Shown here: in pieces, positions 210 to 42,329 of the stretch
How positions within the stretch are numbered: position 1 is the stretch's first letter
How the letters are laid out: the number at the start of each line of letters is the position of its first letter
From: Elusimicrobiota bacterium
GTDB taxonomy: Bacteria; Elusimicrobiota; Elusimicrobia; UBA1565; UBA9628
NCBI GenBank assembly: GCA_016194705.1
Contig: JACQAZ010000001.1
Span: forward strand, 20,019 to 84,018
Length of the DNA: 64,000 nucleotides
Direction of reading: 5' to 3'
Position numbers and translations under genes: made by a program
Notes under the pieces: generated by a model
The model's input: the letters and a program-made list of their open reading frames with translations, nothing else
What the model was told of the DNA's origin: nothing
Database searches by the model: none

Positions 210-212
210 GCC

Positions 213-569
213 GTGGAGGCGGGGTTCAGGACGCTCGACGAGTTCTGGCCCTACTACGTCTCGCAGCATCTCAACCCGACGACACGGCGCCTGCATTTCG
301 CCGGGACGACCGCGGGCCTAGCCTGCCTGGCGGCCTCGCTCGTCTGGAACAACCCCTTCTGGGTCCCCATCGGGCTGGTCTGTTCCTACGGCCTGGCTTG
401 GATCGGCCATTATCGCTATGAGAAGAACCGCCCCGCGACCTTCGCCTATCCCCTTTTTTCGCTGCGCGCGGACTTCCGGATGTACAGGCTCATGTGGCTC
501 GGGAGGATGGACGCGGAGATCGCCGACCTAAGCGAACTCTTGAAGGTCTACCGCCGCGGCCGGGCTTAG
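213..569 (+). CDS. DUF962/Mpo1-like membrane protein
   Basis: Motifs FWPYYVSQH, RRLHFAGT and WIGHYRYEKNRPATF. Confidence 0.85.
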   Translation: MEAGFRTLDEFWPYYVSQHLNPTTRRLHFAGTTAGLACLAASLVWNNPFWVPIGLVCSYGLAWIGHYRYEKNRPATFAYPLFSLRADFRMYRLMWLGRMDAEIADLSELLKVYRRGRA

Positions 570-2593: not shown

Positions 2594-2641
2594 ACGCCCG
2601 AAGTATAGCAGGGGAACGGCTATTCTTCAATCCCGGCGTTT

Positions 2642-3229: not shown

Positions 3230-3336
3230 GGCAGGACCCCCTTTGCGCCTTTGGTCTCCCTCGCGGGAGGCCCGACCACTATAGCATGGGAACATTAATA
3301 ACCAACAATTAATAATTATTACATCTATATTGTGTT

Positions 3337-21561: not shown

Positions 21562-23235
21562 ATGACCAAACAAACCGTCTCCATGGTTTTGTCGCTTCTG
21601 CTGTGCGCCGCGCCCGTGTTCAACGCGGTCGGGGAAAACAGCGGGCAGCTCGATCCTCAGGCATACGCCCACAAAGACAATATTCCCCCGGATGACTTGG
21701 ATTCCCTGAAGACCAAGGGGTATCGATCCGACGCCGATGGCTTGTTCCCCTATGACGGCACCTGTTGTCTAAGAAACAGAGATGTATGGACGTTGCTTCG
21801 GGGAAAACCCTCCGGAGAGGACCAACCGTCGCGGGAACAAGCGCGCTCCGGGAAGCCCGAGCCAATCGTTGCGCCGGATATGGCCGGCCGACTCCAAAAC
21901 GGCATACAAAATGGCGTCAGAGACTGGGGTAATGGCGGCGATAAGGGAGATGCACTCATCACTGGCAGCGTGGCCGCTGTCCCAGACGTCCGCGGCGTCG
22001 CTCCCGCCCGCCGAGCTCTCCTCCGGGTCGCACACGCGAACAACGCTTCACCTTCCTCCGTACAACCCTGGGAGGTACATCTGGCGCCGTACAAGCAGGC
22101 GCCTGTCGCCTCCGCGGACACCGCGCCGCCCACAATGCCGGCGAAGCCGCCGGTCATTAAAGACGCGCGGACCGCACCCGCTACCGCAAGGCATTCCGCG
22201 ACGGGACAAGCGCAAAATTCCTCAACAAAGGGGGAAGTCGCAACTCCGGACGCGACTGTGGTCGACCACTCGAAACAGGACCTCAAGGGCGGGGAGACTC
22301 TCAAAACCTACAACAAGCAGCTCGACGATTTCTTCCAGGATTCCGCCCAGACGTCGCCTGCTTCAACCCTGAATCATGATACCGGCGTCCAATCGGGTGG
22401 CTATTCCCCGGTGGGCAGCTTCGGGCTCGCCGAAGGGTACGTCAACGACCAGCTCCAAAAGTTCATATCGGAGCTCCTTCGTCAAAGCGTCTCCCTGATG
22501 GGGTGGAAACTCGATATTAAATTAAAATTCAAGGAGAACCATGACGTGATGGTGGATATCGATATGAGCATCCCGCCTGGTTTTTTCGGCATGCCCAGCA
22601 CCGACAAGGATCTGCTCACCTATCACATAACCTCCAAGATGGAAGTGCTCAGCACCCCGCACCAGGGATATCTCATCTTCAAGCTCCCGCCGAACGGCAC
22701 CCTGTTCAAACGCGCCAATTCAGACATCCCGCCGGTCGCCATCCACACCGAACTGCTTTCGGACGCCGTGGCTATCGCCCGCGGATATTTGGCCGCGCTG
22801 TCCGGAGATATGGCGGGGTTCGACGCCGCGGCGGCGTTGCTTCAAAAGCAGATGGCCGCGCTTAAACTCCAAATGGACCAGCTCAACAAGGAACGCGACC
22901 GCAAAGAATACATGAAACTTCAGGCGCAGTTCAGGCTATTTGAGCTTCAAAAGGAAGCCACCGAGATCCAGCGCGGCCAGTTCAAGGACATCGCCGAACA
23001 GGTGCATACGCAGATGTTCTCTTTCGTCGGGGACAAGGAATTGAATTTGAACAATCTCCTGGCCGCGCGCGGCAACTCGCTGGTTCTTAAAGTCAACCTG
23101 GAGCAGATCACCCCGCCGAACATCTATAAGCTTGTGGCGGGCATACGGCTCAAAAATATCCAGGTAGAGGATCGTGACGGCCATAAGGAGTTGTACTTCT
23201 ATCTAGAAGGTCCTAAGGCGAAGAAGAAGGTATAG
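21562..23235 (+). CDS. Secreted hypothetical protein with low-complexity N-half and TULIP-like C-half with coiled-coil insert (lower GC)
   Basis: Signal peptide; codon usage visibly more AT-rich than the flanks; C-terminus resembles the next gene. Confidence 0.7.
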   Translation: MTKQTVSMVLSLLLCAAPVFNAVGENSGQLDPQAYAHKDNIPPDDLDSLKTKGYRSDADGLFPYDGTCCLRNRDVWTLLRGKPSGEDQPSREQARSGKPEPIVAPDMAGRLQNGIQNGVRDWGNGGDKGDALITGSVAAVPDVRGVAPARRALLRVAHANNASPSSVQPWEVHLAPYKQAPVASADTAPPTMPAKPPVIKDARTAPATARHSATGQAQNSSTKGEVATPDATVVDHSKQDLKGGETLKTYNKQLDDFFQDSAQTSPASTLNHDTGVQSGGYSPVGSFGLAEGYVNDQLQKFISELLRQSVSLMGWKLDIKLKFKENHDVMVDIDMSIPPGFFGMPSTDKDLLTYHITSKMEVLSTPHQGYLIFKLPPNGTLFKRANSDIPPVAIHTELLSDAVAIARGYLAALSGDMAGFDAAAALLQKQMAALKLQMDQLNKERDRKEYMKLQAQFRLFELQKEATEIQRGQFKDIAEQVHTQMFSFVGDKELNLNNLLAARGNSLVLKVNLEQITPPNIYKLVAGIRLKNIQVEDRDGHKELYFYLEGPKAKKKV

Positions 23236-23242
23236 AACTCCC

Positions 23243-23848
23243 ATGACGACAAAAACCATCTGGCTTCTCTGCCTCCTCTCGCCGGCATGCACCCTGCCGC
23301 GCGCGCGGGCCGAGGTTCCGGCTCCGCTCCGGCCCGACCTCGTGCTGCGGCTCAACCAGGAACTCTTCGAGACCCAGGGGGTTCAGGAAGCCCTGGATGC
23401 GGGCAAACGACGGTTGGACCCGGGCTTCCACGATGCATTCCTCGATTTCAGGAACGACGGCATCCACCTCAAGTTCACGCAATCGCTCTTATGGAAAGAA
23501 TTCGAATTCGACATAATCCTGCGTCTACTCTGGACCGGCCGCAACACATTCGAAGCGCATCTCCAAAAATTCGATGTTTCCGGGAAGCTCCTTTTATTCC
23601 ATTTCAAGGTCGACCTTAAAACGCTGAAGGCCCAGTTATTCCAATTTTTCAAGCTCAACATCCAAGTCGTGCTGCTGGACGCCATCGATTTAAAGTATGT
23701 CGGGAACACGGCGGACCAATCGCTCGTATTCCGCGGCACGGTCAACGTGGGCAAGCTGGTCCCCCTGCCGGCGGCCGCCGACCTCGATCTCTCGGGCATA
23801 CAGACGCAGGACCGATTGTTGGTTTTAGAGTTGGCAAGACGTCCTTAG
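23243..23848 (+). CDS. Secreted hypothetical protein, TULIP-like, co-transcribed with the previous gene
   Basis: Signal peptide; alternating hydrophobic strands; 7-nt gap to the upstream gene. Confidence 0.7.
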   Translation: MTTKTIWLLCLLSPACTLPRARAEVPAPLRPDLVLRLNQELFETQGVQEALDAGKRRLDPGFHDAFLDFRNDGIHLKFTQSLLWKEFEFDIILRLLWTGRNTFEAHLQKFDVSGKLLLFHFKVDLKTLKAQLFQFFKLNIQVVLLDAIDLKYVGNTADQSLVFRGTVNVGKLVPLPAAADLDLSGIQTQDRLLVLELARRP

Positions 23849-23955
23849 CGCCCCCCTGCGATACCCTGTCCACCATCCTTCCTGGAGGCGCCCGCGATGG
23901 TTTCATCTTACGGCCGTCGAAATTCTAGCCCAGTTTCACGGTATAATAGGAAGGC

Positions 23956-24312
23956 ATGAACCGGCTCATCCTCCTGGTCTTCACCGTTTTGGCGTGGCCC
24001 TCGCTGGCGCACGCCGAAGAGAAGAAGCAAAAGAACAAAGTCGGTACCCTACCGGCCATGCAACAGCGCGTGCTCGACGCGAAGACGGCCGGCGAGACCC
24101 ACGAGATGACCCTCGACGCGATCTTCGACAACCACCAGCACGGAGACGGCTCGGTCAATGCGACGACCGACAAGCTGCTCTCTGGAACCGCCGTGAGCCC
24201 GGAGCAGGCCAAGGAAGCCCGGCTCAAGGAAGCCGAGTGCCGAGCCGCAGCCCGCCACGGCAAGCGCAAAGGGCCGCGCTGCCGGGGCCGCCAGACTCGC
24301 GGCGAGCGCTAA
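23956..24312 (+). CDS. Small secreted hypothetical protein with basic tail
   Basis: TATAAT and AGGAAGG upstream; signal peptide MNRLILLVFTVLAWPSLAHA. Confidence 0.65.
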   Translation: MNRLILLVFTVLAWPSLAHAEEKKQKNKVGTLPAMQQRVLDAKTAGETHEMTLDAIFDNHQHGDGSVNATTDKLLSGTAVSPEQAKEARLKEAECRAAARHGKRKGPRCRGRQTRGER

Positions 24313-25415: not shown

Positions 25416-25572
25416 CTAGCAGGGTGCTGAAAAACTCGCGGTCGGCGAGCGTCGGGTCCGGGGCAGTCGTTCTCCGCTATTGGTCCGTTGCTTTAAAGCA
25501 ACGGACCAACGAGGAGTGATGGCCGAGCGGCGGAGCCAAGGCGGCCGAATGACTTTTTCAGCAACCTGCTAG
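25416..25572. mobile_element. MITE-like element with terminal inverted repeats and an internal 30-bp palindrome
   Basis: CTAGCAGGGTGCTGAAAAA ... TTTTTCAGCAACCTGCTAG (1 mismatch); CTAG at both ends; TTGGTCCGTTGCTTTAAAGCAACGGACCAA at 25480-25509. Confidence 0.7.
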
Positions 25573-28500
25573 CGCCCGAACGCGGCGAGCGCGAAGAGGC
25601 GCGGCACGATCGGGAAGCCGGGCAGGTTCGCCTTCGGGGTCGCCGCGTCGGCCGCGGCGCGAAGCGCCAGACGCGCCTCCTCGGACCGCGCGAGCGCGAG
25701 CTCGGCCTCGGCGATGAGCCTCATGTCGTCCGGCGGCGGGACGGGTTTGGCCTCTTCGAGCTTTTTCCGGTAGGCCTCGTAGACCTTGCGCCTCTGCTTC
25801 TGCTGGGCCGCGCCCAAGCCGACCTGCACCGCGACCCGCACCGTGTCCACGGCGATGTGATCGGGAGTCGCGACTGTCTGTCCGATGCCGTCCGAATCGG
25901 TGCGGTCGCCGATCGCATTCAGGGTGTTCTCGACGGCCAGCCTCCCGGTCTGGTGGTCCACCTTCGTTTCCGCGTACTCTCCCGCGCGGCCGCGCACGGA
26001 TTCTACGAAGCTCTTGCGCACGCTCCCCGTAAACGAGCCCATGATCTGGCCCCGGGCGTCCTCGAGGTCCTCCTTGGCCCAGCCGATCTCGCGCAGCAAG
26101 GAGCCCTTGCCCAGATGGACGTCTTTCTTGCCGTCCGTCGAGACCGGGGCTTTCTCGTGCTCCCACTCGCCCGGCTTTATCGGAGAGTCGTTGTCGACGC
26201 GCTTGGGGAACTGCGACGGATCGTAGTAGCGGTCGACCGGATCGGGCAGGATCTCGAAGATGTCGATGAAGTGCACGACCTTGCCGAGCGCGCCGCGGTG
26301 GACGGTCGCGCCGCCGTCGGTCTGGCGCATGTAGACGCGCCCGATGTAGCCTTCCTGGTTGGGGTCGCGGCCGGTGATCATCTCGATGGGCGTCTTGATG
26401 ATGCCGCGGGGGGTCTCGAGGATGATGTTGCCCCAATTCTGCGGCATGTAGGCCCAGCGTCCGTTGGCCCCGAGGCCGCTCTCCGCTTTCGAGAGCCTCT
26501 GCGCGAGGATCGCGCGTCCCAATGAGACGGGAAGGCCCGTCCTCGGGTCTATGTAGCGCTTGAGCCGCGCGATGGGCGAGATGTCCTTGTCGGTCTGCTT
26601 CCAGACCTTGCCCTCCATATCCTCGATCCACCAGGCGCCGGCCTCGCGCTCGAGTTCCTCCTTGCTGCGGAACACGCGCGCGACGCGCCCCTGCGCGTCG
26701 ACCTCCAGAGCCCAAATCTCGCCTTCGAGCCACTGCAAAGCGGCGCCGCCGCCGAGCTTGAAGGAGAAACCCTTGCCCGAGGCGCTCACGACGACGCCCT
26801 CGCCGTCGAGCCCGAGACGGAGGTCCGAGACGAGGTGGAAGGACCAGTCGTGCTCGAGCGACTTCGCGTCCTTGGCCTTTTCGCGCGCCGTGGAAAGTTC
26901 TTCCTGGTTCATGTAGACGGCCGCGACCTCGGCGTCTTTGTCGAGCGCATAGGCGAAGCCCTCCAGCTTGAGGTTGAGCCAACCTTTGCGCCGGGCGGCG
27001 AGCTCGTCGTTGGCCGCCTCGTCGAGCAGGGCGCCGGCGCCGCGCTTGCCGAATTCCGCCCTTTGGAAGAGCCGCGCGTAATCGGAGGCCTCGAGCGACT
27101 CGAGGCTCGGGAAGGTCCCGGCCGGCAGGGCCTCTCCCGAGACCTGCACGAGGATCACGAGCTCGTCGGGGCTCCTCCAGCGCGCGGCCAGAGCGTGGAC
27201 CGGCAGGCGCAGGCCCGCGCGCGGGTCGCGCGCCTTGTTGAAATAGAGGACCTTGCCCTGGCGCTCCATCCTCCTGAGCTCGGCCAGGCTCAAGGCGCCC
27301 GCGTACTGGCCCGCCTTCGCGCCGGACTCCACGCGAAGCGCCAGCTCGGATTTCTCGAGCGCCGCGTCGACTTCCTGGCGGCGCGAGCGCTGCTCGGCGC
27401 GAGCCTTCAGAACCTCGAGCTCTTCTCGGCGCGCATCGACGCCGGCCACGATCTCTTGGCCCCCCGCGCGCCGCGCCTCATCCTCGGTCGTCGGCCGGGC
27501 GCCGACGAAGGTGGGGGGGAGAAGGAAGCGCTTGCCGCCTAGCTCGACGACCTGGTTGCGGCCCTTGAGCCACTCCAGATCCTTGCCCGTCAGCCATTGC
27601 GTCTCGCCGCCGCCCTTGACCTCGTAGAGCGCCGGCAAGGACTCGGGCTTGGCGATCCAGCGCTCGCGCATCGCGCGCAGGAAGGCCAGCGACTCGGAGG
27701 CCGGCTGGATCTGGTCGCGCGCTTCCGGCGAGGCGCGCAGGGCCTGCATGCGCACCTCCCCCAAGGTGATCGCGCCGTCGAGCGTCACGATGCCGCGGCC
27801 GTAGCGCAGCATGTCGCGGCGGCGCTCGAGGCTGCCCCGCAGCCCGAACATCGCGTTGAGGCCGCTCGTCCAGCGCGGGTCCAAGCCCACCTCCTTCATC
27901 GCGAAGGTCTTGAGGACCTCGTTGTCGTAGGCGATGAGCGCCTTCACGTAGGCCTCCAGCGCCTTGTCCTTGAGCACGTAGTCCTCGGGCTTGAGCTTCT
28001 GCTGGAGGTAGTGGTGCAGCGCCTCCTGCCTCGCCTCGTAGACCGCGTCCTTGAGCGTCGAGAGGCGCGCATAGGCCGCCTCGACGGCCGGGGGCGCCGG
28101 GACCGCGCGCCAGTAGGCGGCGCGCAGGGCCTGCATCTCGTTTTGCTGACGGCGCACGTCGCCCTCGGCGCCGACGGCCTGGCTCTCGACGTCGGAGCGC
28201 AGGAAGCCCATCAGATCCGTCCAGGCCGAGCCGCCGCTTTGGGCCTCGAGCTCCCGCAGGATTTGCTCCAAGGCTGATTCCACGCGGCGCCGTCTGCCGT
28301 CGAGGTCGACCTTGGTCAGAAGGTCGAGCTTCTCGGCAGGCGTGAAGTCCTTGCTGAGCACGAGGCTCTGGCTGCGGCGGCTCGAGCGGTACTTCTCGAG
28401 CTCGCCCTTGAGGGACTGGCGCAGCTTGGGAGAGACCCCCGAGAGCAGCGAGTCCTGGCCTTTCTCGAAACCCTCGTCGAGCAGGCGCTGGGCCCAGTAG

Positions 28501-31500
28501 GCCAGCAGCTCCTGGCGCGGGGTCTTCTCCCCGGTCGCCGCGGCGGGAGCCGTCATCGATACGCCGCCCGAGAGGGAGGCCTGCCCCGTGTAGCCCAGGG
28601 CCTCGAGCTCGGTCACCAGGCGGATGAAGTCGAGCCTCAGGGCGTAGACGGTCGCGACCCACTCCTCGTGAGCCGCGGAGGCCTCGAGCTGGGCGGCCAC
28701 GACGTCGGCCTCGGTCCCCATGCGCATTCGCAGGCGCTCGACGGCCCCCATGAGGTTGCGGCGCGCGACCTCGACGCGGGAGCGCTCCGCCTCGAGGAGC
28801 TTGACCTTGTCGGAAACCGAGGCCATCAGGGAATGCAGCATCAGCGAAAGGCTCTTGAGCCGGTCCTGGGACTCGAGCTCGCGGCGCAGGGCGTCGTTGA
28901 GTATGCCCTCGAGGCTCTTCATGACCTTGATGGGATCGGGCGCCTCGAGGAAAACGCCGCCGACCCAGCGCCCCTGGAAGAGGCCGAAAGCGGCCAGCGG
29001 CGTGAAGCCCTTGTAGCTCATGCGCTCGGCGATGATGTTGGCCTGCATCTGGGAGAGCGGGTCGCGGGCGGCGGCGATCTCCTCGGGCAGGCCTTCCTGG
29101 AACAAATGGCGCTTGAGGAGTTCCAGGTCGAGGGCCTGCGCCTCGCTCAGGTAGCGGTCCGCCGCCGCGCCGAGGTCGGCGTCCTCGGCCGGGATGAGAG
29201 TGAGGAACTGATCGAGAGTCGTCCCCGACGGCAGCCTCAAGTGAGCCGCGACCTCGGCGAAATCGCGTTCGAGGGCCTTGCGCGCGCTCTGCGCCGCTTC
29301 GCCCTGGGCGCCGCGCGCTATGGCGACCTCCAAGCGCAGGCGCGAGAGCAGTATGTCGGCCTTGGCCTTCGCCAGCGAGAGCTCGGTCTTGTAGAGCGAG
29401 TCGGCCTTCTCTTCCTGCAGCTTCGCAAGCGCGATGAGCGCCTCGGGCGGAGTCGCAGCACTTCGCAGGCGCACCTCGATCCAGCCCTCGACGAATTGCT
29501 TGCCGATGGGCTCCTTGGTCAGGGACTGGCGCAGGTCGTAATACCTCAAGGTCCCGTTCGATTCGAACGGAGCCTCCTGCGGCACGGAGGCGCGCAAATC
29601 GCCGACGTCGGGACTCGCCGACTCCGCCCCCAGGGCGACTTCGAGCGCGTCCTTGAGCGCCGCGAAACTCGACGGCAGAGAGCCCTGCTTCTGCTCTTTT
29701 GCCCCATCTCCGCCGTAAGCCATCATCATCGCCTTGAGCCCGTAGATGCGGTTCCGGAGTTGGATCGCCGAAAGCCGGCTCGCCCCGTCGGTTCGGCCCT
29801 CGACGGCCTTCAAGCCCCGCTCGGCCGCGGCCAGTTCGAAGGACCAGCGCGCCCTCATGGCCGGCAGGCGCGCGTCGAAGGAGCGCAGGTCGCGCTCGGC
29901 CGTCAGGGTCTGCTCGCGCGCCAAGGCGACCAGTTCGGGCGACGCCAGGCCCTCGCCCGAGAGCGCCGAGATCAGCCGCCCCAAGGCTCGGCCTATCAAA
30001 GAGATCGGCTCGACGCGGATGTCTTGGACCTTGAGGTTCTTGTCGACGATCTGCTCGACGGATCTGGCGACCTTGACGCGCGAGGCCAGCACGTCCCTGC
30101 TGGCGGCGAGCGGATCCATCTTTCCCAGCCGGTCCTTGAGCTGCGCCAGGGCCTCGTCCATCGTGTCGGTGAGAGCAACGCCGGCGTCGAGCGGCCGGCC
30201 CAGCAGATAGTTGAGTTGGGCGCGGGCCTGGGCGAACTCCCCCTCCAGGTGTTTTAGGTCAGCGCGAGCTTGATCGAGCTCCAAGGATCGTTGAGCGCCG
30301 CCGTCCTGGGCGCGCTCGAGCTCCGGGATGATCTGGTCGCGGTAGAGGTCGCGCGAGTCGCGCGCCGCGCGGAAGGCCGCGTAGCTCTGGAAGAGCTGCA
30401 GGGAGAGGTCGCCTCCGACCTTCTCCTGCAGCCGTGAGTACATCGCCGCCTCGCCGCCGCGGCGCTCCATCGAGAGCTCTTTGAGCTCGCCCGGCTGCAG
30501 GGCGACGTTGAAGATCGGGAAGACCCCCAGGCCGGTGATCCCGAAGGCCGGGAGCAGCGCGACCCCGGCCGCCGTCAGGTTGAGCCCGATGTTGACGTCG
30601 ACGGAGACCTTCTGGAAGCGGTGGGAGGCCGCCTCCATGAGCTCGGAGGCGGCCTGCGAGCGCTGGGCCAGGGCCTCCATGTTCGGAGAATTCCCGACGG
30701 CCGCGTCGAACGCCTCGCTCAGCCGCCGCGGCGCCTCGGGGGCGTTGGCGTAATCGTCCTCGGCGCGGTCGGCGTTTTGAGCGCCGTCCATGACGCTCCA
30801 GGCGTCCTTGAGCGAGCCCTGGGCGCGCGCCTCGAGCTGGCCGCTCGTGGTCCAATACCAGCGCCTGAACCGCGCCCACAGCTCGGCCGGCGGGATGAGT
30901 CCGTTGCGCCACTGCCGGATTCCGTCGGCCAGCGCCGACCGCGCCGCCGGCGCCGAGGCCTGGAGCTGCCAGAAGCGCGCGTCCCAGGACTCCGCGATCA
31001 GGCGCTCCGAGCGCGACTTGAGCCGGAAATCGCGCAGGGAGCCGGCCATCTCCGCGATGATGGCCCGGTCCTGAAAGCGCAGGGCCTTGTCGTTCGACTT
31101 GGCGGCGGGGTCATAGATCGGCAGCCGCAGCGAGACCCCCGCGCCGATGACCTGGTTGGCGAGCACGTCCTGAAGCTGGACGCCCAGCGAGAAGGTGATC
31201 TTCTCGAAAAACGGAATGTAGTCCATCAGGTTGAAGCCTTCCTCGGGAACGCCCATCTGGCCGCGCAGGCCCGAGATCAAGTCGGAGAGGCGGTCGGGGC
31301 TCCCCAGAGCCTTCTGCAGCAGAGCGGAGAAGCCTTCGAGATCCTGCGGGGTCAACTCGTCGAGGATCGCGGTGTCGTCGGGGCCCCGGCCGGTCAGCGC
31401 GTTGTAGCGCAGCAGGGCCTGGCGATGGCGGTCGGCCGCCGAAAGCGCGCGGGTCTGCGCCTCGGCGCGGATGACGGGGTCGTCGGCGTTGGCGTACATC

Positions 31501-34500
31501 CAGGCGGCCAGCGACATGTCCCAGCGCGACTCGACGAGCTCGACGAGCGAGGCCTGCCAGGCCTTGGTGATGTCCAAGAGTCGCGACTGCAGGGCCAGAC
31601 CCTCCTGGAAGAGGGCGAGGATCTTGTCGTGGATGAGCGCCTTCTGGGACTTGGTCAAGGTGAGCTCGGTCATCGTGCCGACCTGGAAGCCGCCGCCCGT
31701 GGCGCGCTCGGCCGTGCCGGTGCCGACCGGGTTGGTCACGAAGCCGATCATGCCCCTCATACGAACGTTGTCCAGAATCGCCCCTGCCTTTTGCAGCTCT
31801 TTGAGGTCCCGTGTCATCTGGCCGATCTCGAGCGAGAGGAGCTTCTTGCCGACGTCGGCGTCGAAGACGCGCTTGAGTTCCAAGACGAGGCGCTCATCGG
31901 GCGACGAGCGCTTGAAGAACTCGTCGACGGACTTGTTGAATTTCGCGAGAGTCTGGCCTCCCTGCAGGTCCTCGGCGGCGCCGCCGGCTACGAGGCGCCA
32001 GAGCTCGCCCAAAGTGAAGGTCGTCTGCGCGCCCAGCGTCAGCCGGTCGTTGAGGCCCACGTAGCGGCTGCCGTAGGAGACGAAGGCGTCGGTGTTCTGG
32101 CCGAGCTTCTTCCTGAGCTCCACGAAGTAAGTGCTCGCGTCCCCGAGGATCTTCCCCTGGGCCGAGAGGGCGAGGCCCTGGTTGGGCAGCTCGAAGCTCA
32201 CGCGCCCCGACAGGGTGTTGTACTTCTCGCCGAGTTCCCCGGTACCGCCGATCGTGGTCTTGACAGGCGTGCCGTCAATATCGAAGGAAAAGCCCTTGAC
32301 GATGGTCGCTCCCACCGCGTTCTGCTGTATGTCGTCGGTGCCGGTGACCCTCGAGAGGTAGAAATCGACCTTGAAGCTGTCCTTGGTCTCGAGGGCCTTC
32401 TGGAGGTCGAAGCCCACGCCGACCTTGTCGCGCCGGAAGAACTTGTTGTCGCCGTGGGCCCCGATCACGAAGTCCTTGTCGAGGTCGGGGTCGAACTTGG
32501 TGAAGTCGAGGTTGACGGTCTGCAGGAACTTTCGCGGGTCCTTGGCGAACAACGCCGACTCCTCGGCGTTGAGGCTCATGATCTCGGAAAACTTCACGCT
32601 GGCCTTGACGTTGCCGCCGTAGTAGTAGGGCTTGTTGGCGGCATCCCTGGCCGCGAAATCGGCGAAGCCCGCGGCGCCGAAGTAGAGCTTGCCGTTGGCC
32701 AGCATCATCGCGAAATCGTCGAAGATCATCATGCGCGCCTCCTGGACCTGCGAGCCCACCTTGAGGTCCGGAGGTATGTCCTGGATGAACTTGTGGAAGG
32801 TCACGTCGAGGTAATTGACGAAGTTCTTGCCCTGCAGCGATTCGACCTGCACCGTGATGCCCTGGTCGCCGAACGGGGCGTTGCCGTCGGAAGGCGGGCT
32901 TGCGAAGCGGTGGCCGATGACGGAGACGTTGTTGCCCCAGAGGTTGAGCACGTTGCCCATGGTCATCTGGCTCGAGGTCTCGAGGCCTCCAGGCGTCGAG
33001 AATTCGGTCTGATAGACGAGGTAGAAACCGTCCGAGCCCGTGCCGACCTCGACCATCTTGGTGTTCGGGAGAAGCTGCGCCAGCGACATCGGGTTCTTGA
33101 GGATATCCTCGCGCAGGCCCGCGATGTCGCGCGCGGTGGAATCCGCCGAGATTGCGCCGAAGAGCTGGGAGAGAAAATTAGAGAACATCGACTTCGGGAT
33201 CACGATGGTCTGGGGTCCGCCCGGGCCCGTCGCGAGCCACGAGGAGCCCTGGCCGGAGACCGCCTGTACGCGGTTGGCCAGTTCCGGCGAGAGCTGGCGC
33301 AGGTCGCCGACGGCTTCGAGCTTCTTCGAGAGCAGGGCTTGCTCTTTCTGCATCGCGATCAGCGATTCCTCGAGAGTCTTCTTGGCGGCCGCGTATTGGT
33401 CGGTGAGCTTGTGGTGCTCGATGTTGGTCTCGAGGACGGCGCGCGTCTTGTCCTGGATCGCCGAGAGGTTCTCGGTCACGCGCCGCAGGGCGCTCTCGTG
33501 CGGGTCGTTGAGCTGCTTGAGCCAGCCGGTGACCTCGGCCTTCTGCTTGGCGATCTGGTCCTGGGCTTTGGTCAAGGTGTCCTTGAACTGCTGGGCCGCC
33601 TTGCGGTCGGCGTCGAGCGCCTGGTCGCCCGAGCTGTAGACCTGCCCGAGAGAGTCGTAGTAGCCGGCGGCGTCGGTGACGGTCTGGAAGGACTCGGTGT
33701 CCCAGGAGGTCTTCTGTTGGAAGATGCCCGCGCCCTCCTTGGCCGTGTCCCTGATCCGCGTGTAGATCGAGATCTTGCGGTCGGGCACCGCGTCGCCTCC
33801 CGAAAGGTCGCCGGAGACGAAGGCGTCGTCCGCGTCGAGGTCCGCGAAGACCGCATCGAGCGCTGAGGTCGCATTATTAAGGAAAGCCTCGAAGAGGGGG
33901 ATGCGTTCGTTGAGGTTCTTGTTGGCCGAGACGATCAGCGCGTCGGAAAACAGGAAGCGGGCCAGAGCCTCGGCGACCGAGTCTCCGGTCCCGGTCGCAG
34001 TCGTGGGCACGAGGCGCTTGACGACGTCGAGGCCGTAGAGCGCCAGCTGCTGGAGATTCTGGAGCGCGAGCGGCGGCTGCGGGCCCGTCGGTATGCTGCC
34101 GCCCGAGCCGCCGATGTTGAGATCGGTCTTCCCGGCCTGCGCCGAGGCTGCGTCGGCGATGGCCTTGATGTCGGCGGCCATGTTCTGGAGGACCTTGCCG
34201 TCGGCCATCGCCTTAAGGCGAGTCACGGAGTCCGCGCCGGTCGCAGATAGGTCCGTCGGCATCTTGTATTTCGAGGCGAGGTTGTACTTCCCGGGGAACA
34301 GCGCGTCCATCTTGCCGAGGATGTCGTTGATCTGCGCGTCGCGGGCGTTGATCTGTCCGGCTCGGAGGACCTTCTCCGCCTGATAAACGACGGCGCGCTT
34401 GACCAAGGAGTAGGGCGCCGGCTCGCCGTAGACGTCCTCGGTCTCGTTGTTGTTGGGGTCCTTGCGGCGGCGGATCTGGTCGACGAGGTCGTTGACGAGC

Positions 34501-37091
34501 TTGCGGTAGTCGTTGAACTGCTTGCGCACCTCCGCGATGCCGGCCTTGGCGCCCGCGACGTCGCCGAGCTTGGCCCCGCCGGAGGCCAGTCCCCAAGGGA
34601 AGGTCTTGTGCAGGCCGTCGTAGATCTTCTTGTAGACGTCTCCTTTCTGCTGATACAGCAAGGCCAGGCTGTCGCCGGTCGCGTGCGGATCGGCCAGGTC
34701 GATGCGGTCCTGCTGGTAGGGGATCAAGGTCTGGTCGAGCAGCTGCTGGAGGCCCTGAAGCTCGGGACGCAAGGTCGAGTCGACCAAAGCGGTCTTGCGG
34801 TCGATCAAGGCCTGCGCCTGGGATTGGGGGAAGCCCGCGTTGACGTACGCGACGTCGGCGGCGATGTCGCTCATGATCGCCTGCAGCGCGGCCACCGACT
34901 TCGTGAAGGCGTCGCGCACGGCGGGCAGGATCCGGGTGATCGGCTTGTCCAGCGCCTTGGAAGTCGCCTGGGCCTCGAGGCGGCGCACGGTCATGTCGCC
35001 CATGAAGGTCAAGCGCTTGGCGATCCCGAGCTTGGCCATCTTGCCGGAGAAGCCCGCGTCGGTGCCGGGGAAGGAGAGGCCGTCGATCTGGTCGACATAC
35101 TTGGGCAGGAGGTCGCGCAAGTCCTGCGCCGAACGGCCCGAGAGCCGAGCTAAAGTCGTGCCGGCGCCCTGCTCGACGGCCGGGGCCAGCGCGTCGATCT
35201 CGGAGGCGACCGCGTCCGAGGTCTGCCCTATGTTCGAGGCGAGCGCGTTCTCCTCGTTCTGATAAGCCACCAACGACTCGGGGATCGAGTCGCCGAAGTC
35301 GTTGAGCACGCGCTTGGAATTGCCGGGATCGAGCGCGCGGTTGACGCCGGCCAGCGTGTCTTGATGCTCTTTGAGCTGAGCGGCCCAATAGACCTTGCGG
35401 TCGGCTAGGATCTGCAGGGCCTGCGCGACCGTCGGATTGCTCGCGCTGACCGCCGGTATGCCCGGGACCAGCAGGACGAGCACGCCCGCGAACTCGACGG
35501 GCGTCGACGCCAATTTCGCGTCCGCGCCGCTGAGCAATGAGAGATCCGAGCTGATCTCGGCGGATTTCGATTTGAGGTAGTCCATCGAGAGGCTCGTCAG
35601 GTCGGTCGTGCCGCCGCCGCCGGAGCCGTGGATGAGCTTCTGTTGGAGCTGGGGCAGCAGGGCCAGGCGCCGCTGATATTCCGACGGCGCGTCGGCGCTC
35701 TGGCCCTTGTCGCGGGCGTTGATCGCGGCGACCAGGCCCGTAACGCCGGTCTTGAATTCAGTGATCCTCTGCACGCCCTGCGCGGCCTGATCGGAGAGCT
35801 TGCCGAAATCTTTGGTGTGCTGCTTGTCCAGGTCCAAGGCGTCCTGGGCGTCCTTGTTCCACTGGTCCTTCTTGGCCTTGTTGGCCGCGGCCGAGGCCGC
35901 GTTGGCGTCGTTGGCCTTCTTCTGGGCGTCGATCTTGGCGATCTTCTGGTCGAGGAGCTGCTGCATCCCGGCGAGCGCAGCCTGCGCCGAGTTGAGGAGA
36001 TTGAGGCTGTAGGAGAGGTCCATCACCATCGCCAGACGGGAAAAATTCTTGCGGAATTCGAGCATGTCCGAGCCGGAGCGCCGCTCGCGCAGAGCCGAGT
36101 CGCGCGCGCGGTCGGCGACGGCCAGCATCGCGGCCAGGGCGTCTCGCGCGGCGAGTTGGGCCTGAACGCTGGATTTGAGGGCCTCGACCTTGGCCACCTC
36201 CTTGGAAACCTGACGCTCCGTTTCGGTGCCCGCCAGGGCGGGCTTGGTCCCCGCTCCCGGCGCGGGAGCGGACTTCATGTCCTCGAAGAGCCGGCGAAGG
36301 GCATCCAGCGAAGCCCACTTGAGCTCGTTGGACTGCGTGCGCCCCGGAGCCGTCGCGCCTGGCCCCTCGAGCAGGTCCTTGTAATTCTTGGCCAACTCCT
36401 CGAGCCGAGCGAGCTCCTCGGCGTTCTTGGGCGGCGACGAGAGGTCGGCGCGCTGGGCGAGTTTTTCCTGCGCGGCCTCCTCATCGGAGACCGGCGTCGG
36501 GATGACGAGCCGAGCCGTGCGCGTCGGCAGCACGACCTCCGCCCGGGGCGGCGCCGGCGACTGGGGCGGCGCGGCGGCCGCCTCGAGAGCCGCGGAAGGG
36601 ACTCCCGAGAGGCTGGCGGCGAGATTCCTCGCGTCGGCCTGAAGCTTCTCGCCCTCGCGCTCCTTGCGCCGCTCGGGCGCCTGCTGCATGAGAGCGCGCA
36701 GCTCCTCGAGGCCGTCTCGCGCGAGCTCGAGGAGCTCCGGACGCGGCGCCGCGAAGTCGTCGAGGCCGGCAAGAGTCAAGGGAACTTCTACGCGGGTCGA
36801 AAGCCAGGCGGCCACCGCGCGACGGCCGTCGGCCGAGCGGATGGCCCGCGCTTGGGCCCGCAGGAGCCCCGCGATCGGGGGCGGGTCGACGCTCAGCAGC
36901 CGCGCCAATCCCGCGAAGGCCTGGTCGGGAGCGGCCGCCGGAACCATGGAGGCCCTCACGGGGCGGGCCGCGACGGGGGGGGCTGAGAGCTCGGCCGCCA
37001 AGGCCGGCCAAGGGCCGCAGAGGGAAAGGGAAACGACCCCCGCGAGCGCGCGGGGGGCCAGGGATGGGGCTCGGCGAGAGGGGTATCCCAT
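25569..37091 (-). CDS. Giant (3840 aa) secreted envelope protein: helical stalk + beta-barrel-like block + tandem TolC/OEP-like repeats + C-terminal domains
   Basis: Uninterrupted ORF with host-like codon usage and a signal peptide. TolC-like motifs: GVSLRLPIYD, WRNGLIPPAELW, LSEAFDAAVGNSP, ARAQLNYLLGRP, RMGTEADVVAAQ. Confidence 0.85.
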   Translation of the reverse strand: MGYPSRRAPSLAPRALAGVVSLSLCGPWPALAAELSAPPVAARPVRASMVPAAAPDQAFAGLARLLSVDPPPIAGLLRAQARAIRSADGRRAVAAWLSTRVEVPLTLAGLDDFAAPRPELLELARDGLEELRALMQQAPERRKEREGEKLQADARNLAASLSGVPSAALEAAAAPPQSPAPPRAEVVLPTRTARLVIPTPVSDEEAAQEKLAQRADLSSPPKNAEELARLEELAKNYKDLLEGPGATAPGRTQSNELKWASLDALRRLFEDMKSAPAPGAGTKPALAGTETERQVSKEVAKVEALKSSVQAQLAARDALAAMLAVADRARDSALRERRSGSDMLEFRKNFSRLAMVMDLSYSLNLLNSAQAALAGMQQLLDQKIAKIDAQKKANDANAASAAANKAKKDQWNKDAQDALDLDKQHTKDFGKLSDQAAQGVQRITEFKTGVTGLVAAINARDKGQSADAPSEYQRRLALLPQLQQKLIHGSGGGGTTDLTSLSMDYLKSKSAEISSDLSLLSGADAKLASTPVEFAGVLVLLVPGIPAVSASNPTVAQALQILADRKVYWAAQLKEHQDTLAGVNRALDPGNSKRVLNDFGDSIPESLVAYQNEENALASNIGQTSDAVASEIDALAPAVEQGAGTTLARLSGRSAQDLRDLLPKYVDQIDGLSFPGTDAGFSGKMAKLGIAKRLTFMGDMTVRRLEAQATSKALDKPITRILPAVRDAFTKSVAALQAIMSDIAADVAYVNAGFPQSQAQALIDRKTALVDSTLRPELQGLQQLLDQTLIPYQQDRIDLADPHATGDSLALLYQQKGDVYKKIYDGLHKTFPWGLASGGAKLGDVAGAKAGIAEVRKQFNDYRKLVNDLVDQIRRRKDPNNNETEDVYGEPAPYSLVKRAVVYQAEKVLRAGQINARDAQINDILGKMDALFPGKYNLASKYKMPTDLSATGADSVTRLKAMADGKVLQNMAADIKAIADAASAQAGKTDLNIGGSGGSIPTGPQPPLALQNLQQLALYGLDVVKRLVPTTATGTGDSVAEALARFLFSDALIVSANKNLNERIPLFEAFLNNATSALDAVFADLDADDAFVSGDLSGGDAVPDRKISIYTRIRDTAKEGAGIFQQKTSWDTESFQTVTDAAGYYDSLGQVYSSGDQALDADRKAAQQFKDTLTKAQDQIAKQKAEVTGWLKQLNDPHESALRRVTENLSAIQDKTRAVLETNIEHHKLTDQYAAAKKTLEESLIAMQKEQALLSKKLEAVGDLRQLSPELANRVQAVSGQGSSWLATGPGGPQTIVIPKSMFSNFLSQLFGAISADSTARDIAGLREDILKNPMSLAQLLPNTKMVEVGTGSDGFYLVYQTEFSTPGGLETSSQMTMGNVLNLWGNNVSVIGHRFASPPSDGNAPFGDQGITVQVESLQGKNFVNYLDVTFHKFIQDIPPDLKVGSQVQEARMMIFDDFAMMLANGKLYFGAAGFADFAARDAANKPYYYGGNVKASVKFSEIMSLNAEESALFAKDPRKFLQTVNLDFTKFDPDLDKDFVIGAHGDNKFFRRDKVGVGFDLQKALETKDSFKVDFYLSRVTGTDDIQQNAVGATIVKGFSFDIDGTPVKTTIGGTGELGEKYNTLSGRVSFELPNQGLALSAQGKILGDASTYFVELRKKLGQNTDAFVSYGSRYVGLNDRLTLGAQTTFTLGELWRLVAGGAAEDLQGGQTLAKFNKSVDEFFKRSSPDERLVLELKRVFDADVGKKLLSLEIGQMTRDLKELQKAGAILDNVRMRGMIGFVTNPVGTGTAERATGGGFQVGTMTELTLTKSQKALIHDKILALFQEGLALQSRLLDITKAWQASLVELVESRWDMSLAAWMYANADDPVIRAEAQTRALSAADRHRQALLRYNALTGRGPDDTAILDELTPQDLEGFSALLQKALGSPDRLSDLISGLRGQMGVPEEGFNLMDYIPFFEKITFSLGVQLQDVLANQVIGAGVSLRLPIYDPAAKSNDKALRFQDRAIIAEMAGSLRDFRLKSRSERLIAESWDARFWQLQASAPAARSALADGIRQWRNGLIPPAELWARFRRWYWTTSGQLEARAQGSLKDAWSVMDGAQNADRAEDDYANAPEAPRRLSEAFDAAVGNSPNMEALAQRSQAASELMEAASHRFQKVSVDVNIGLNLTAAGVALLPAFGITGLGVFPIFNVALQPGELKELSMERRGGEAAMYSRLQEKVGGDLSLQLFQSYAAFRAARDSRDLYRDQIIPELERAQDGGAQRSLELDQARADLKHLEGEFAQARAQLNYLLGRPLDAGVALTDTMDEALAQLKDRLGKMDPLAASRDVLASRVKVARSVEQIVDKNLKVQDIRVEPISLIGRALGRLISALSGEGLASPELVALAREQTLTAERDLRSFDARLPAMRARWSFELAAAERGLKAVEGRTDGASRLSAIQLRNRIYGLKAMMMAYGGDGAKEQKQGSLPSSFAALKDALEVALGAESASPDVGDLRASVPQEAPFESNGTLRYYDLRQSLTKEPIGKQFVEGWIEVRLRSAATPPEALIALAKLQEEKADSLYKTELSLAKAKADILLSRLRLEVAIARGAQGEAAQSARKALERDFAEVAAHLRLPSGTTLDQFLTLIPAEDADLGAAADRYLSEAQALDLELLKRHLFQEGLPEEIAAARDPLSQMQANIIAERMSYKGFTPLAAFGLFQGRWVGGVFLEAPDPIKVMKSLEGILNDALRRELESQDRLKSLSLMLHSLMASVSDKVKLLEAERSRVEVARRNLMGAVERLRMRMGTEADVVAAQLEASAAHEEWVATVYALRLDFIRLVTELEALGYTGQASLSGGVSMTAPAAATGEKTPRQELLAYWAQRLLDEGFEKGQDSLLSGVSPKLRQSLKGELEKYRSSRRSQSLVLSKDFTPAEKLDLLTKVDLDGRRRRVESALEQILRELEAQSGGSAWTDLMGFLRSDVESQAVGAEGDVRRQQNEMQALRAAYWRAVPAPPAVEAAYARLSTLKDAVYEARQEALHHYLQQKLKPEDYVLKDKALEAYVKALIAYDNEVLKTFAMKEVGLDPRWTSGLNAMFGLRGSLERRRDMLRYGRGIVTLDGAITLGEVRMQALRASPEARDQIQPASESLAFLRAMRERWIAKPESLPALYEVKGGGETQWLTGKDLEWLKGRNQVVELGGKRFLLPPTFVGARPTTEDEARRAGGQEIVAGVDARREELEVLKARAEQRSRRQEVDAALEKSELALRVESGAKAGQYAGALSLAELRRMERQGKVLYFNKARDPRAGLRLPVHALAARWRSPDELVILVQVSGEALPAGTFPSLESLEASDYARLFQRAEFGKRGAGALLDEAANDELAARRKGWLNLKLEGFAYALDKDAEVAAVYMNQEELSTAREKAKDAKSLEHDWSFHLVSDLRLGLDGEGVVVSASGKGFSFKLGGGAALQWLEGEIWALEVDAQGRVARVFRSKEELEREAGAWWIEDMEGKVWKQTDKDISPIARLKRYIDPRTGLPVSLGRAILAQRLSKAESGLGANGRWAYMPQNWGNIILETPRGIIKTPIEMITGRDPNQEGYIGRVYMRQTDGGATVHRGALGKVVHFIDIFEILPDPVDRYYDPSQFPKRVDNDSPIKPGEWEHEKAPVSTDGKKDVHLGKGSLLREIGWAKEDLEDARGQIMGSFTGSVRKSFVESVRGRAGEYAETKVDHQTGRLAVENTLNAIGDRTDSDGIGQTVATPDHIAVDTVRVAVQVGLGAAQQKQRRKVYEAYRKKLEEAKPVPPPDDMRLIAEAELALARSEEARLALRAAADAATPKANLPGFPIVPRLFALAAFGR

Positions 37092-38632: not shown

Positions 38633-39003
38633 CCAAGTTCCCCCGGTTTTGTCGTTTACCTCCACCGGTGGAGGTAACCATCATGGAAGTGTCGGCAGCA
38701 CCAAGATGATTTGGTCTGCCGTTGTTGTTGGAGCTCTCGCCGAAGGCGAGAGCCGCCCGCCGCAGGCGCCGGTTTATGGGCTGCCGCCCCGCGGTCGGGC
38801 CCTCGCGCGCTCGAAAGGTCCGGGTCCGCCGCCACAGCCGCTGCGCAGGGACAGATCACCAATTTGATTTTCAGAATTCCCCTATAGGGTTTTGGGACAA
38901 TAAACTGCGTCAGGCCTTTGTCCCAAAACCCTCCTCGGGATTCCTAAAATACGGCGCGGAGCTTCCTCCCGCGGCCGCCGGGTTTGGGGCCGGGGGAACT
39001 TGG
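38633..39003. mobile_element. MITE-like element with 14-bp perfect TIRs, flanking direct repeat and internal palindromes
   Basis: CCAAGTTCCCCCGG at 38633-38646 and CCGGGGGAACTTGG at 38990-39003; CAATAGCGCC on both sides (38623-38632 and 39005-39014). Confidence 0.75.
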
Positions 39004-39015
39004 ACAATAGCGCCC

Positions 39016-39044
39016 TTGACTCGCGGCGTTACACCTGCTACATT
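39016..39044 (+). promoter_or_regulatory. Leaderless promoter TTGACT-17-TACATT
   Basis: ATG 39051 lies 6 nt after the -10 box; no SD. Confidence 0.65.
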
Positions 39045-39050
39045 TCGAGC

Positions 39051-40538
39051 ATGAACGCCGAATCACTATGGCTCATCCGAGGGCGACAAGCCCTCGCCCT
39101 TCTCCTCTGCTTCTCGCTTAGCTCGTGCGCCACGCTGGCCGTCACCCCGGAGCTCAAGCCGGCGCCGCCCGCTCGGGCCGTCGCGGGCAAACTCGGCATC
39201 CAATACGAGGGGGAGCAGCTCAAGCGCGTTTTCGCGGCCGCCGACCGCTCCGCGATCGGCGCGGCGTCCGGCCAGTTTTTCTCCGACGTGACCGTGCTCC
39301 CTCCCGAGAGCCGCTACGCGGCTCCCCAGGACCTCTTCGACCAATACGGCACGGACCTCATCCTCCAGGCCCAGGTCGCCGACACCGTGAGCAACGGGGC
39401 CGTCAATGCGCTGTTCGCGAGCTGCTTCCTGCTGATGTGGTTCTGCATCGCGACCGTGCCCCAGATGACCATGACCGACGACGTCACCCTGCAGGGGAAC
39501 CTGCGCGACTCCCGTACGGGACGGCTGCTGTGGGCCGGAACCGTCAAGTCCCGGGGCACCGATCACTTCACGCCGATGGGCTCCTCGGGCATCCAGCCGC
39601 TGCTGGTCCAGCGGGTCGTGCACAACGCCGTCATCGAGCTCATGCAGACCGCCGCGGGGCAGGTCTCCGGCTACCGCCCGGAGTCGGTCAAGGAGGAGAG
39701 CCTGCAGGCGGCCGTGCGCAAGGCGCCCGGCCTGGCCAACCTCCATCTCCTGCATCCGGCCGCCAAGTCCAAGAACCGCTACGCCATCGTCATCGGCATC
39801 GACCGCTACCGCGAGCATCTGCCCAAGGCGGACTTCGCGGCCGACGACGCCAGAGACGTCGCCAAGTTCCTCATCGAGCGCGCGGGCTACCCGGAGGAGA
39901 ACGTGGTGGTCAGGCTCAACGAGGAAGCGAGCAAGGGCGACATGGAAAAGTACTTCGAGTCCTGGGCGAAGAACAACGTCGACGCGAGCTCGAGCCTGCT
40001 CGTCTACTACTCCGGCCACGGCTCGCCCGACGTCAACAACGGCGACGCCTACATCGTCCCTTACGACGGCGATCCGGCCTACATCGAGCAGACCGGCTAC
40101 CCGCTCAAGAAGCTCTACAGAGTCCTCGACGGCCTGCCGAGCAAGAACACCTTGGTCCTGCTCGACTCCTGCTTCTCGGGAGCCGGCGGCCGCTCGGTGC
40201 TCATGGCGGGCGCCAGGCCCCTGGTCAACGTCAAGCCCGTCTCGGTCTCGGACCAAGGAAAGACCGTGGTCTTGTCTGCGACCTCCGGCAACCACATCAG
40301 CGTGGCCTACCGCGAGACCGGACACGGCCTCTTCACCCATTATCTGCTCCAGGGGCTCTCCGGCGAGGCCGACGCCAACGGCGACAACGCCGTCGACGTC
40401 CAGGAGCTATACGAATACCTCAGGCCTCAGGTGGAGCGCGTGGCGCGCAAGGTCTACAACACCGAGCAGGTGCCGCAGCTCATCGAGCCCGCGGCGATGC
40501 TCGGCTCGCCTCCGATCAGGATCGTCGTGTCGCAGTGA
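39051..40538 (+). CDS. Lipoprotein with C-terminal caspase-like (peptidase C14) domain
   Basis: Lipobox SLSSC; YAIVIGIDRY, YYSGHG (His), LDSCFSG (Cys), HGLFTHYLLQGL, EQVPQ. Confidence 0.88.
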   Translation: MNAESLWLIRGRQALALLLCFSLSSCATLAVTPELKPAPPARAVAGKLGIQYEGEQLKRVFAAADRSAIGAASGQFFSDVTVLPPESRYAAPQDLFDQYGTDLILQAQVADTVSNGAVNALFASCFLLMWFCIATVPQMTMTDDVTLQGNLRDSRTGRLLWAGTVKSRGTDHFTPMGSSGIQPLLVQRVVHNAVIELMQTAAGQVSGYRPESVKEESLQAAVRKAPGLANLHLLHPAAKSKNRYAIVIGIDRYREHLPKADFAADDARDVAKFLIERAGYPEENVVVRLNEEASKGDMEKYFESWAKNNVDASSSLLVYYSGHGSPDVNNGDAYIVPYDGDPAYIEQTGYPLKKLYRVLDGLPSKNTLVLLDSCFSGAGGRSVLMAGARPLVNVKPVSVSDQGKTVVLSATSGNHISVAYRETGHGLFTHYLLQGLSGEADANGDNAVDVQELYEYLRPQVERVARKVYNTEQVPQLIEPAAMLGSPPIRIVVSQ

Positions 40539-41315: not shown

Positions 41316-42329
41316 ATGACCGCGACCAAACCCTCGGCCGCGCCCCGCATGCGCTACCGTCCGCTCGGACGCACGGGCCTGGAGGTTTCCGAGATCGGCT
41401 TCGGCGGCTGGGGCATCGGCAAGTCGATGTGGGGCCGCACCGACGACGCCGAGTCCATGCGCGCCCTGCACGCGGCCCTGGACTGCGGCATCACCTATTT
41501 CGACACGGCCTTCGCCTACGGGCACGGCCATTCCGAGCGGCTGATCGCGCGGCTGCGCAAGGAATCCTCCGCGCAGTTCACCGTATCGACCAAGATCCCT
41601 CCGCGCAACATGGAATGGCCGGCGCGCTCGAGCACGGCGCTGGCGCTCGCCTTCCCGCCGGATTGGATCCGCCTCTGCGTCGAGCGCTCGCTGCGCAACC
41701 TATCGACGGACTGCCTGACTCTCTATCAATTCCACGTCTGGACGGACTCCTGGCTCAAGGATCCCCTGTGGCCCGCGGTCGTGGAGACCTTCGCGGCGCT
41801 TAAGAAGCAAGGCAAGATCCGCCACGCCGGAGCCTCGATCGGGGACGACGATCCCGAGACCGCGCTGGGCCTGGTGCGCTCGGGCTTCGTCGACCAGATC
41901 CAGGTCCTCTTCAACATGTTCGAACAGCGGCCGCTCGACCGCCTCTTCCCGCTGTGCCGGGAGAAGGGCGTCGCCGTCGTGGTCCGCTGTCCTTTCGACG
42001 AGGGGGGGCTCACGGGAGCCTTGAGGCCCGACACCCGCTTCGAGCCGGAGGATTTCCGCAGCCACTATTTCGGAGGCGAGCGCCTCGCCGAGACCTGCCG
42101 CCGCGCGGACGCGCTCGAGACCCTCGTCGTGGGAAAGAAGGCGCGGACCCTGCCGGAGGCCGCTTTGAAGTTCTGCTTGAGCTTCGACGCGGTATCGACC
42201 GTCATCCCCGGCATGCGCAAGGTCTCTCACGTGAGCGCCAACGCGGCGGCCTCCGACGGGAATTACTTCGACGCGGGCGAGCTCGAGGCCGTCGCGGCTC
42301 ACCGCTGGGTGCGCAACTTCTATCAATAA
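41316..42329 (+). CDS. Aldo/keto reductase
   Basis: LGRTGLEVSEIGFG, FDTAFAYG, STK, SLRNL, LKKQGKIR, VIPGMRK. Confidence 0.92.
   Translation: MTATKPSAAPRMRYRPLGRTGLEVSEIGFGGWGIGKSMWGRTDDAESMRALHAALDCGITYFDTAFAYGHGHSERLIARLRKESSAQFTVSTKIPPRNMEWPARSSTALALAFPPDWIRLCVERSLRNLSTDCLTLYQFHVWTDSWLKDPLWPAVVETFAALKKQGKIRHAGASIGDDDPETALGLVRSGFVDQIQVLFNMFEQRPLDRLFPLCREKGVAVVVRCPFDEGGLTGALRPDTRFEPEDFRSHYFGGERLAETCRRADALETLVVGKKARTLPEAALKFCLSFDAVSTVIPGMRKVSHVSANAAASDGNYFDAGELEAVAAHRWVRNFYQ

Follow-up and report, generated by a model that had tools for sequence, protein, structure and literature searches.

The stretch of DNA considered here (64,000 nucleotides, hereafter the window) comes from an Elusimicrobiota bacterium (GenBank assembly GCA_016194705.1, contig JACQAZ010000001.1, positions 20,019 to 84,018) and carries on its minus strand a giant stop-free open reading frame, P0001 (window 25569-37091), coding for 3,840 amino acids. 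With a probability of about one half, the region of this protein between amino acids ~1730 and 2835 is best explained as a whole by a tandem array of three highly diverged protomers of the TolC/outer-membrane-factor type that form an asymmetric pseudo-trimeric duct. The three copies would provide six half-repeats, each made of a helix, a beta-hairpin and a long helix, and most likely they pack side by side in one chain, as the protomers of the TolC trimer do, so that about 12 outer-membrane strands and a periplasmic helical tunnel would be assembled by a single polypeptide. Within the same chain such a duct would lie beside a porin-like beta-barrel domain. On either side of the two, the N-terminal part (approximately 1,400 residues, predominantly helical) and roughly 1,000 residues at the C-terminus would be periplasmic. 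The components of this reading differ in certainty: the presence of tandem TolC-derived modules amounting to at least two protomer-equivalents in one chain is very likely, the presence of three protomer-equivalents with six half-repeats is probable, and the closure of a single-chain pseudo-trimeric duct, as judged from the sequence, is plausible, being the simplest use of exactly three protomer-equivalents.

In TolC and OprM three protomers build a beta-barrel of 12 strands and an alpha-barrel of 12 helices, and outer-membrane factors in general cooperate with an adaptor in the periplasm and a pump in the inner membrane, whose genes often, but not always, lie nearby. The accessible part of PMC8277102 describes these factors as homotrimers of two-repeat protomers with chains of 420-500 amino acids. 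For the window, about six tandem half-repeats of this type (OEP in Pfam) had been proposed by an earlier note at positions 28590-31900, which correspond to amino acids ~1731-2834 of the single 3,840-codon frame. A relation to TolC extending over more than one protomer-equivalent, a layout of three modules and six hairpin-like interruptions were retained from this proposal, while the last of the three modules stayed at noise level in profile comparison (E 0.078). The earlier note had missed that the array belongs, as a single domain, to a chain of 3,840 residues in which it is immediately preceded by a porin-like beta domain.

TolC-like signal in the giant protein

For the analysis the region was split into thirds, each aligned with 48–49 homologues and treated below as a module of two units; all coordinates within the giant gene refer to the minus strand. 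TolC-protomer-like module 1 (units 1 and 2, amino acids 1700-2119, 30735..31994) is supported by hhalign and OEP matches, and TolC-protomer-like module 2 (units 3 and 4, amino acids 2120-2489, 29625..30734) by the same two approaches and by its colinearity with module 1. Putative module 3 (units 5 and 6, amino acids 2490-2850, 28542..29624), the most diverged, has behind it OEP matches, a noise-level hhalign signal and a weakly supportive two-chain structure prediction.

The Pfam OEP model (PF02321) has a gathering score of 22 bits. With the window protein scanned as 400-residue pieces it matched amino acids 1966-2070 (E 4.4e-4, 20.5 bits), 2124-2298 (E 0.51, spanning model positions 1-187) and 2739-2820 (E 0.075), and none of seven pieces taken from outside the region gave OEP at E<=1. 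When all members of the alignments were scanned at E<=0.01, OEP turned out to be the most recurrent Pfam family in every third, registered in 4 of 50 members for the first (best E 5.7e-7), 2 of 50 for the second (best E 8.7e-4) and 8 of 49 for the last (best E 5.2e-4). The upstream domain yielded no OEP match in 27 members (E<=0.05), nor did the downstream 460 residues in 26. Since the scans of the flanks were empty and OEP was found in each third, the signal is specific to the region and present in all three of its parts. Scanning whole regions of eight diverse members listed OEP for four of them at E<=10, with 2–3 stretches each, and a home-made half-repeat hidden Markov model, built from ordinary TolC, produced weak matches in all six units, those of units 1, 2 and 6 alone having E<0.01.

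Profile-profile comparison, in which hhalign used 41 aligned TolC proteins of the ordinary Elusimicrobial kind as reference, gave E 6.8e-6 (probability 84.6%) for module 1 and E 5e-4 (31%) for module 2. Both modules match the identical segment of TolC, namely the N.L.GR-bearing end of repeat 1 together with the linker to repeat 2, and when the alignment setting was relaxed, module 2 ran colinear with a nearly whole TolC protomer (9-361 versus 26-423). The two modules also align colinearly with each other (E 3.9e-4), hairpin 4 being placed opposite hairpin 2. Because controls give E-values of 0.015–0.55 (0.015–0.48 for reversed profiles, 0.21 and 0.55 for the flanking domains compared with TolC), modules 1 and 2 stand above noise, and by the measure of these profiles they share homology with TolC and with one another, the relation being real but weak. 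A comparison of the whole region with itself revealed a single repeat pair (574-661 versus 177-268, E 0.0014; region coordinate plus 1699 equals the amino acid number), and in the all-against-all comparison of units significance was reached only between the ends of units 1 and 3. The same relation was approached with language-model features of the ESM Atlas, which lacks the window sequence itself, so that stored fragments of homologues were substituted. The nearest clusters of a 1,143-residue homologue fragment, covering region positions 176-1150, were OEP families at a score of 0.96, values of at least 0.95 arising in about 1 of 100 shuffled proteins; spirochaete OEP-like clusters were among its nearest feature neighbours.

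The giant protein as a whole matched no Pfam family, and its sole NCBIfam match was a sub-threshold one to an unrelated hypothetical family. At its N-terminus, amino acids 1-33 (36993..37091) resemble, as judged by eye, a Sec signal in which a basic n-region is followed by a hydrophobic core and the site ALA|AE, and a crude test for a hydrophobic stretch of this kind was passed by 49 of 61 full-length homologues. The giant protein looks like a Sec-exported one, as an outer-membrane factor has to be.

Module layout, hairpin candidates and predicted packing

All 18 peptide strings quoted in the earlier note were found in the translation in the order given there, between amino acids 1776 and 2801, and many of them persist in the consensus drawn from 50 homologues, for instance LRYNxLTGR, SVRLPIYD, NxLLGRP, FxEGWxExRL, FTPVAAFG and FLEAP. 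A propensity map averaged over the family profile displays six non-helical, beta-prone interruptions marked by Gly and Pro (region positions 77-113, 255-295, 461-497, 664-685, 812-845 and 994-1019), each followed by a long predicted helix and spaced every 150–205 residues, and an L..LG-type motif, such as that at the end of the OEP repeat, terminates five of the six units.

Hairpin candidates proposed on the basis of the quoted strings and the propensity map fall at these interruptions. Candidate 1 (amino acids 1776-1812, 31656..31766) and candidate 6 (2693-2718, 28938..29015) rest on these two sources. Candidates 2 (1954-1994, 31110..31232), 3 (2160-2196, 30504..30614) and 5 (2511-2544, 29460..29561) are in addition supported by hydrophobicity, the second of the six being the most TolC-like (SVRLPIYDP) and showing alternating hydrophobicity in both strands. 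Candidate 4 (2354-2384, 29940..30032) is weak and is additionally indicated by its alignment with hairpin 2.

Insertions and deletions in the family avoid helices. Some of them are located at unit borders (region positions 244-251, 410, 764-769 and 923-939), and others lie 46–68 residues past the hairpins (563-566, 731-734, 899 and 1087-1090), where they likely mark helix turns. In units 3 and 6 the distance from hairpin to indel is 66–68 residues and another 35–44 residues remain to the unit end, a spacing that matches the lengths of OprM helices H3/H7 (67 residues) and H4/H8 (36 residues) given in section 6.2 of PMC8277102. The indel at position 899 (amino acid 2598) touches the window copy itself: a segment of at most 23 alignment columns, present in 45 of 50 family members, is missing from the window protein at window ~29394-29396 (minus strand), in what is likely the helix turn of unit 5.

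Contacts between modules were estimated by a two-chain structure prediction. Modules 2 and 3 scored 0.58 (0.58, 0.62 and 0.55 in separate runs), while the best of three controls scored 0.00; the partner pLDDT (predicted local distance difference test) was at least 69 and the runs shared at least 27% of contacts. Of 80 solved complexes 58 reach the mark used for packing, as do 2 of 110 mismatched pairs, and among scores of at most 0.60 at the mark there are only 7 of the 80 solved complexes together with both passing mismatches, which makes this a weak pass. It may reflect remembered TolC trimers and is silent on ring closure. Taken in this way, the prediction lends modest support to module 3 as a TolC-like partner of module 2.

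Weighing the proposed pseudo-trimeric duct against other explanations

A number of observations speak against three protomers closing into a duct. The gathering score of Pfam was reached neither by the window protein (20.5 versus 22 bits at best) nor by any of the eight diverse members, only four of which were listed at all. Pfam scans never gave more than three OEP stretches per chain, a number falling literally within the "only 2-4" repeats that the earlier note had named as refuting its proposal. Module 3 matched TolC on the C-terminal helices of the latter with E 0.073–0.078 and a probability of 0.7%, which is the noise level, and modules 1 and 2 with E 0.1–0.24, within the noise of controls; its profile, searched against 5.8 billion proteins, recovered four fragments of the family and no ordinary TolC. 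Units 4 and 5, which the earlier note had already called weak by eye, proved to be the weakest, neither giving a significant match alone in the unit-by-unit comparison. Sequence-profile searches of PDB, run for the region as a whole and for its separate thirds, produced neither TolC nor any other meaningful match, and ordinary TolC was likewise absent from the phmmer matches over 1.84 billion representatives. The alternating hydrophobicity that typifies membrane strands stands out clearly only at hairpin 2, in the first strand of hairpin 3 and in the second strand of hairpin 5, and a stray peak of it occurs at region position 530, outside the proposed hairpins. Helix lengths are uneven across units, approximately 46–58 residues in some and 66–68 in others, which is awkward for a regular tunnel; the shorter helices would mean either that the tunnel is uneven or that the turns were assigned wrongly. 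No adaptor and no ABC, RND or MFS pump was found among the 20 neighbouring open reading frames scanned. In the formal sense the region failed to qualify as a member of the Pfam OEP family, but on present evidence it behaves like a fused TolC. The status of module 3 as a true third protomer, the number of exactly six hairpins, ring closure in one chain and conduction of anything by the duct are inferred.

The noise-level behaviour of module 3 in every profile comparison, the lack of significant matches for units 4 and 5 and the limit of three Pfam stretches per chain would all be expected if only modules 1 and 2, i.e. four half-repeats, were derived from TolC, the last third being a different helical domain and any barrel being completed by oligomerization or by the upstream beta domain. 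Several features of module 3 argue against this. OEP is most recurrent just there, above the counts of modules 1 and 2 (8 of 49 members), the Pfam match at amino acids 2739-2820 and the weak hhalign match are both in register and both fall on the C-terminal helices of OEP/TolC, two hairpin-like interruptions and L..LG ends are located within it, and it is predicted, weakly, to pack on module 2. We regard the four-repeat explanation as unlikely.

There is also a possibility that each chain does contribute six hairpins, but several chains assemble into a larger barrel of 24–36 strands, each being a jumbo protomer. All characterized outer-membrane factors are trimers according to section 6.2 of PMC8277102, and the number of strands per chain varies in the superfamily, since artificial-intelligence models of the TolC-like proteins TP0966-TP0969 of Treponema pallidum, as far as they are described in the accessible part of PMC13749626, have 8 strands per monomer and form 24-strand trimers. 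As divergent relatives of TolC with a number of strands per chain other than four, these proteins (TP096X_N clusters) resemble the region studied here, but in the same source they appear as homotrimer chains of about 500 amino acids, which are neither tandem fusions of protomers nor parts of a giant protein. Three protomer-equivalents are exactly the number that closes the TolC ring, and this, together with the weak predicted packing of module 3 on module 2 (0.58 versus 0.00 in the best control), makes the larger barrel improbable.

Least probable of all, and hardly to be expected, is a compositional echo of long amphipathic helices in a periplasmic or extracellular coiled-coil scaffold having no membrane barrel, for although no match passed the curated threshold, PDB gave no sequence matches and the coiled-coil-like rest of the protein does give weak coiled-coil Pfam matches, OEP was found in none of the other helical parts (0 of 7 window pieces, 0 of 27 and 0 of 26 members), modules 1 and 2 outdid the reversed-profile controls by a factor of 30–3000, the matches keep the register of the TolC repeat, including the SVRLPIYDP strand motif and the N.L.GR linker, and OEP families are indicated by the ESM features at 0.96.

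The three-protomer duct, if it exists, can be set beside several known systems. With TolC and OprM it would share the repeat unit (a short helix, a two-strand hairpin, a long helix of ~67 residues and a return helix) and two repeats per protomer-equivalent, and it does share the N.L.GR linker between repeats 1 and 2, the export signal and, for modules 1 and 2, profile homology. It differs from them in that three protomer-equivalents are apparently fused here, each below the Pfam threshold, inside a multidomain protein of 3,840 amino acids, and in that genes of an adaptor or a pump are not adjacent to the giant gene. In classical autotransporters (type Va) one chain comprises a complete 12-strand outer-membrane barrel and very large extra domains. 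Supply of the whole 12-strand barrel by one chain, as proposed here, is their common trait, but the giant protein has no Pfam autotransporter match, and the proposed barrel is located in the middle of the chain rather than at its C-terminus, would have hairpins of the TolC type and would continue into a long periplasmic helical tunnel. Very long and mostly unannotated genes were described in the same group of phyla by West-Roberts et al. (bioRxiv 10.1101/2023.11.21.568195), the giant proteins of Omnitrophota and Elusimicrobia being associated, in the available part of that text, with repeats of the dockerin/CBM-like kind and with degradation of the cell wall; the term TolC does not appear in it. 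A literature search, which did not reach supplements and subscription journals, found no natural single-chain or fused TolC.

A natural chain of six repeats would break the three-fold symmetry and leave each "protomer" free to evolve separately, which is suggested by the unequal divergence of the three modules. One protein may in this case build alone a channel that normally needs three. It would offer a natural test case for folding and insertion of a TolC-type barrel without trimerization, would mean that giant proteins of the envelope can incorporate the TolC fold as one of their domains and would provide a first functional handle on a conserved family of 3,800-5,800 amino acids, with two paralogues, in an order of groundwater Elusimicrobiota. 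One can also imagine, though we consider it quite doubtful, an envelope machine made of one polypeptide, where a single-chain asymmetric TolC-type duct is joined to a porin-like barrel and to more than 2,000 residues of helical and unknown domains, and which would either take the place of the separate adaptor and docking partners of tripartite systems or pass part of its own chain through its duct to the surface. Self-threading, if true, would represent a new architecture of secretion, in which autotransport has a TolC-based counterpart.

Flanking domains, relatives and neighbouring genes

Directly upstream of the array lies a beta-rich domain (amino acids ~1400-1715, 31947..32894), recognized by conservation and by the model of a homologue fragment. 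It is the best-conserved part examined, its identity of 45–67% exceeding that of the TolC-like part. It has neither Pfam nor PDB sequence matches. The homologue fragment covering it is represented in the Atlas by a low-confidence model (pLDDT 0.44), whose nearest structures are outer-membrane barrels, namely that of TonB-dependent receptors, DUF5916 and DUF6029 (template-modelling score by query 0.49–0.62), and its feature neighbours are annotated as "OMP beta-barrel" and "porin" at 0.89–0.91. Based on this model the domain is probably an outer-membrane beta-barrel of the porin/TonB-receptor type, which we treat as a lead only, and a single chain may hold two different outer-membrane barrels. 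The C-terminal 990 amino acids (25572..28541) are conserved in the family, with no OEP signal in Pfam and hhalign comparisons; neither they nor the N-terminal 1,400 residues gave any family match when window pieces were scanned with Pfam. The remainder of the giant protein is rich in coiled-coil-like sequence, and it is there that the weak coiled-coil Pfam matches occur.

Matches to the giant gene were found in 51 of 401 Elusimicrobiota genomes (39 of 47 in family f1, 9 of 10 in f2, 1 of 2 in f3 and the single genome of f11), with intact frames of 3,300–5,800 amino acids (up to 5,785) and no internal stops. This is a real gene, which one order of Elusimicrobiota has conserved. An artefact of assembly or of open-reading-frame calling was ruled out because intact long frames recur across the 51 genomes. 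A word-indexed protein search returned 48 relatives of 2,214–5,724 amino acids, nearly all of them an Elusimicrobiota "hypothetical protein", a single partial one carrying the source name "TolC family protein", and phmmer against the 1.84 billion representatives returned 86 proteins, all belonging to the giant family or being its fragments. Amino acids from ~200 to 3750 are covered in nearly all of 65 giant homologues.

Many genomes contain two copies. The second copy of the same genome (G000:C41:188629-192201, minus strand, locus L040) belongs to a longer open frame of 5,785 amino acids and is 39% identical to the window copy across the TolC-like region. A tree of 50 region sequences splits into two clades, one of 19 rows including the window copy and the other of 31 rows including this paralogue. 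Since each clade contains families f1 and f2, the duplication is old; the paralogue's clade is a separate, old one, which most relatives carry too.

In the vicinity of the giant gene we registered peptidase S9, methyltransferases, a caspase-like peptidase, an aldo/keto reductase, a TPR protein and a PMT_2 glycosyltransferase. Of these neighbours, only the TPR protein (1,001 amino acids, window 44861-47866, plus strand) and the aldo/keto reductase (41316-42329, plus strand) recur in the four relatives checked, being near the giant gene in four and three of them, respectively; in the window the gene for the PMT_2-type glycosyltransferase (43175-44791, minus strand) is located between the two. 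The caspase-like Peptidase_C14 protein (39000-40538, plus strand), encoded 2 kb upstream of the giant gene, has a weakly lipoprotein-like N-terminal part, and its homologue was found near the giant gene in one of the four relatives. Just downstream of the giant gene the fraction of G and C falls to 0.57 (window 22001-24000) from 0.63–0.73 elsewhere. Two open reading frames in this stretch (21562-23235 and 23243-23848, both on the plus strand) match no Pfam family, and the stretch may be foreign DNA. Three DNA sequencing runs from one groundwater study contain the window stretch, one of them possibly being its source, and no RNA runs were listed.

The same genome also encodes three ordinary OEP proteins. 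When 41 genomes of the order were searched with PF02321, all of the matches listed lay in ordinary frames of 276–832 amino acids, which, with 508 weaker matches left aside, is uninformative on the giant genes. OEP domain matches number 5 in this genome and 8–25 in each of the 40 other genomes of the order.

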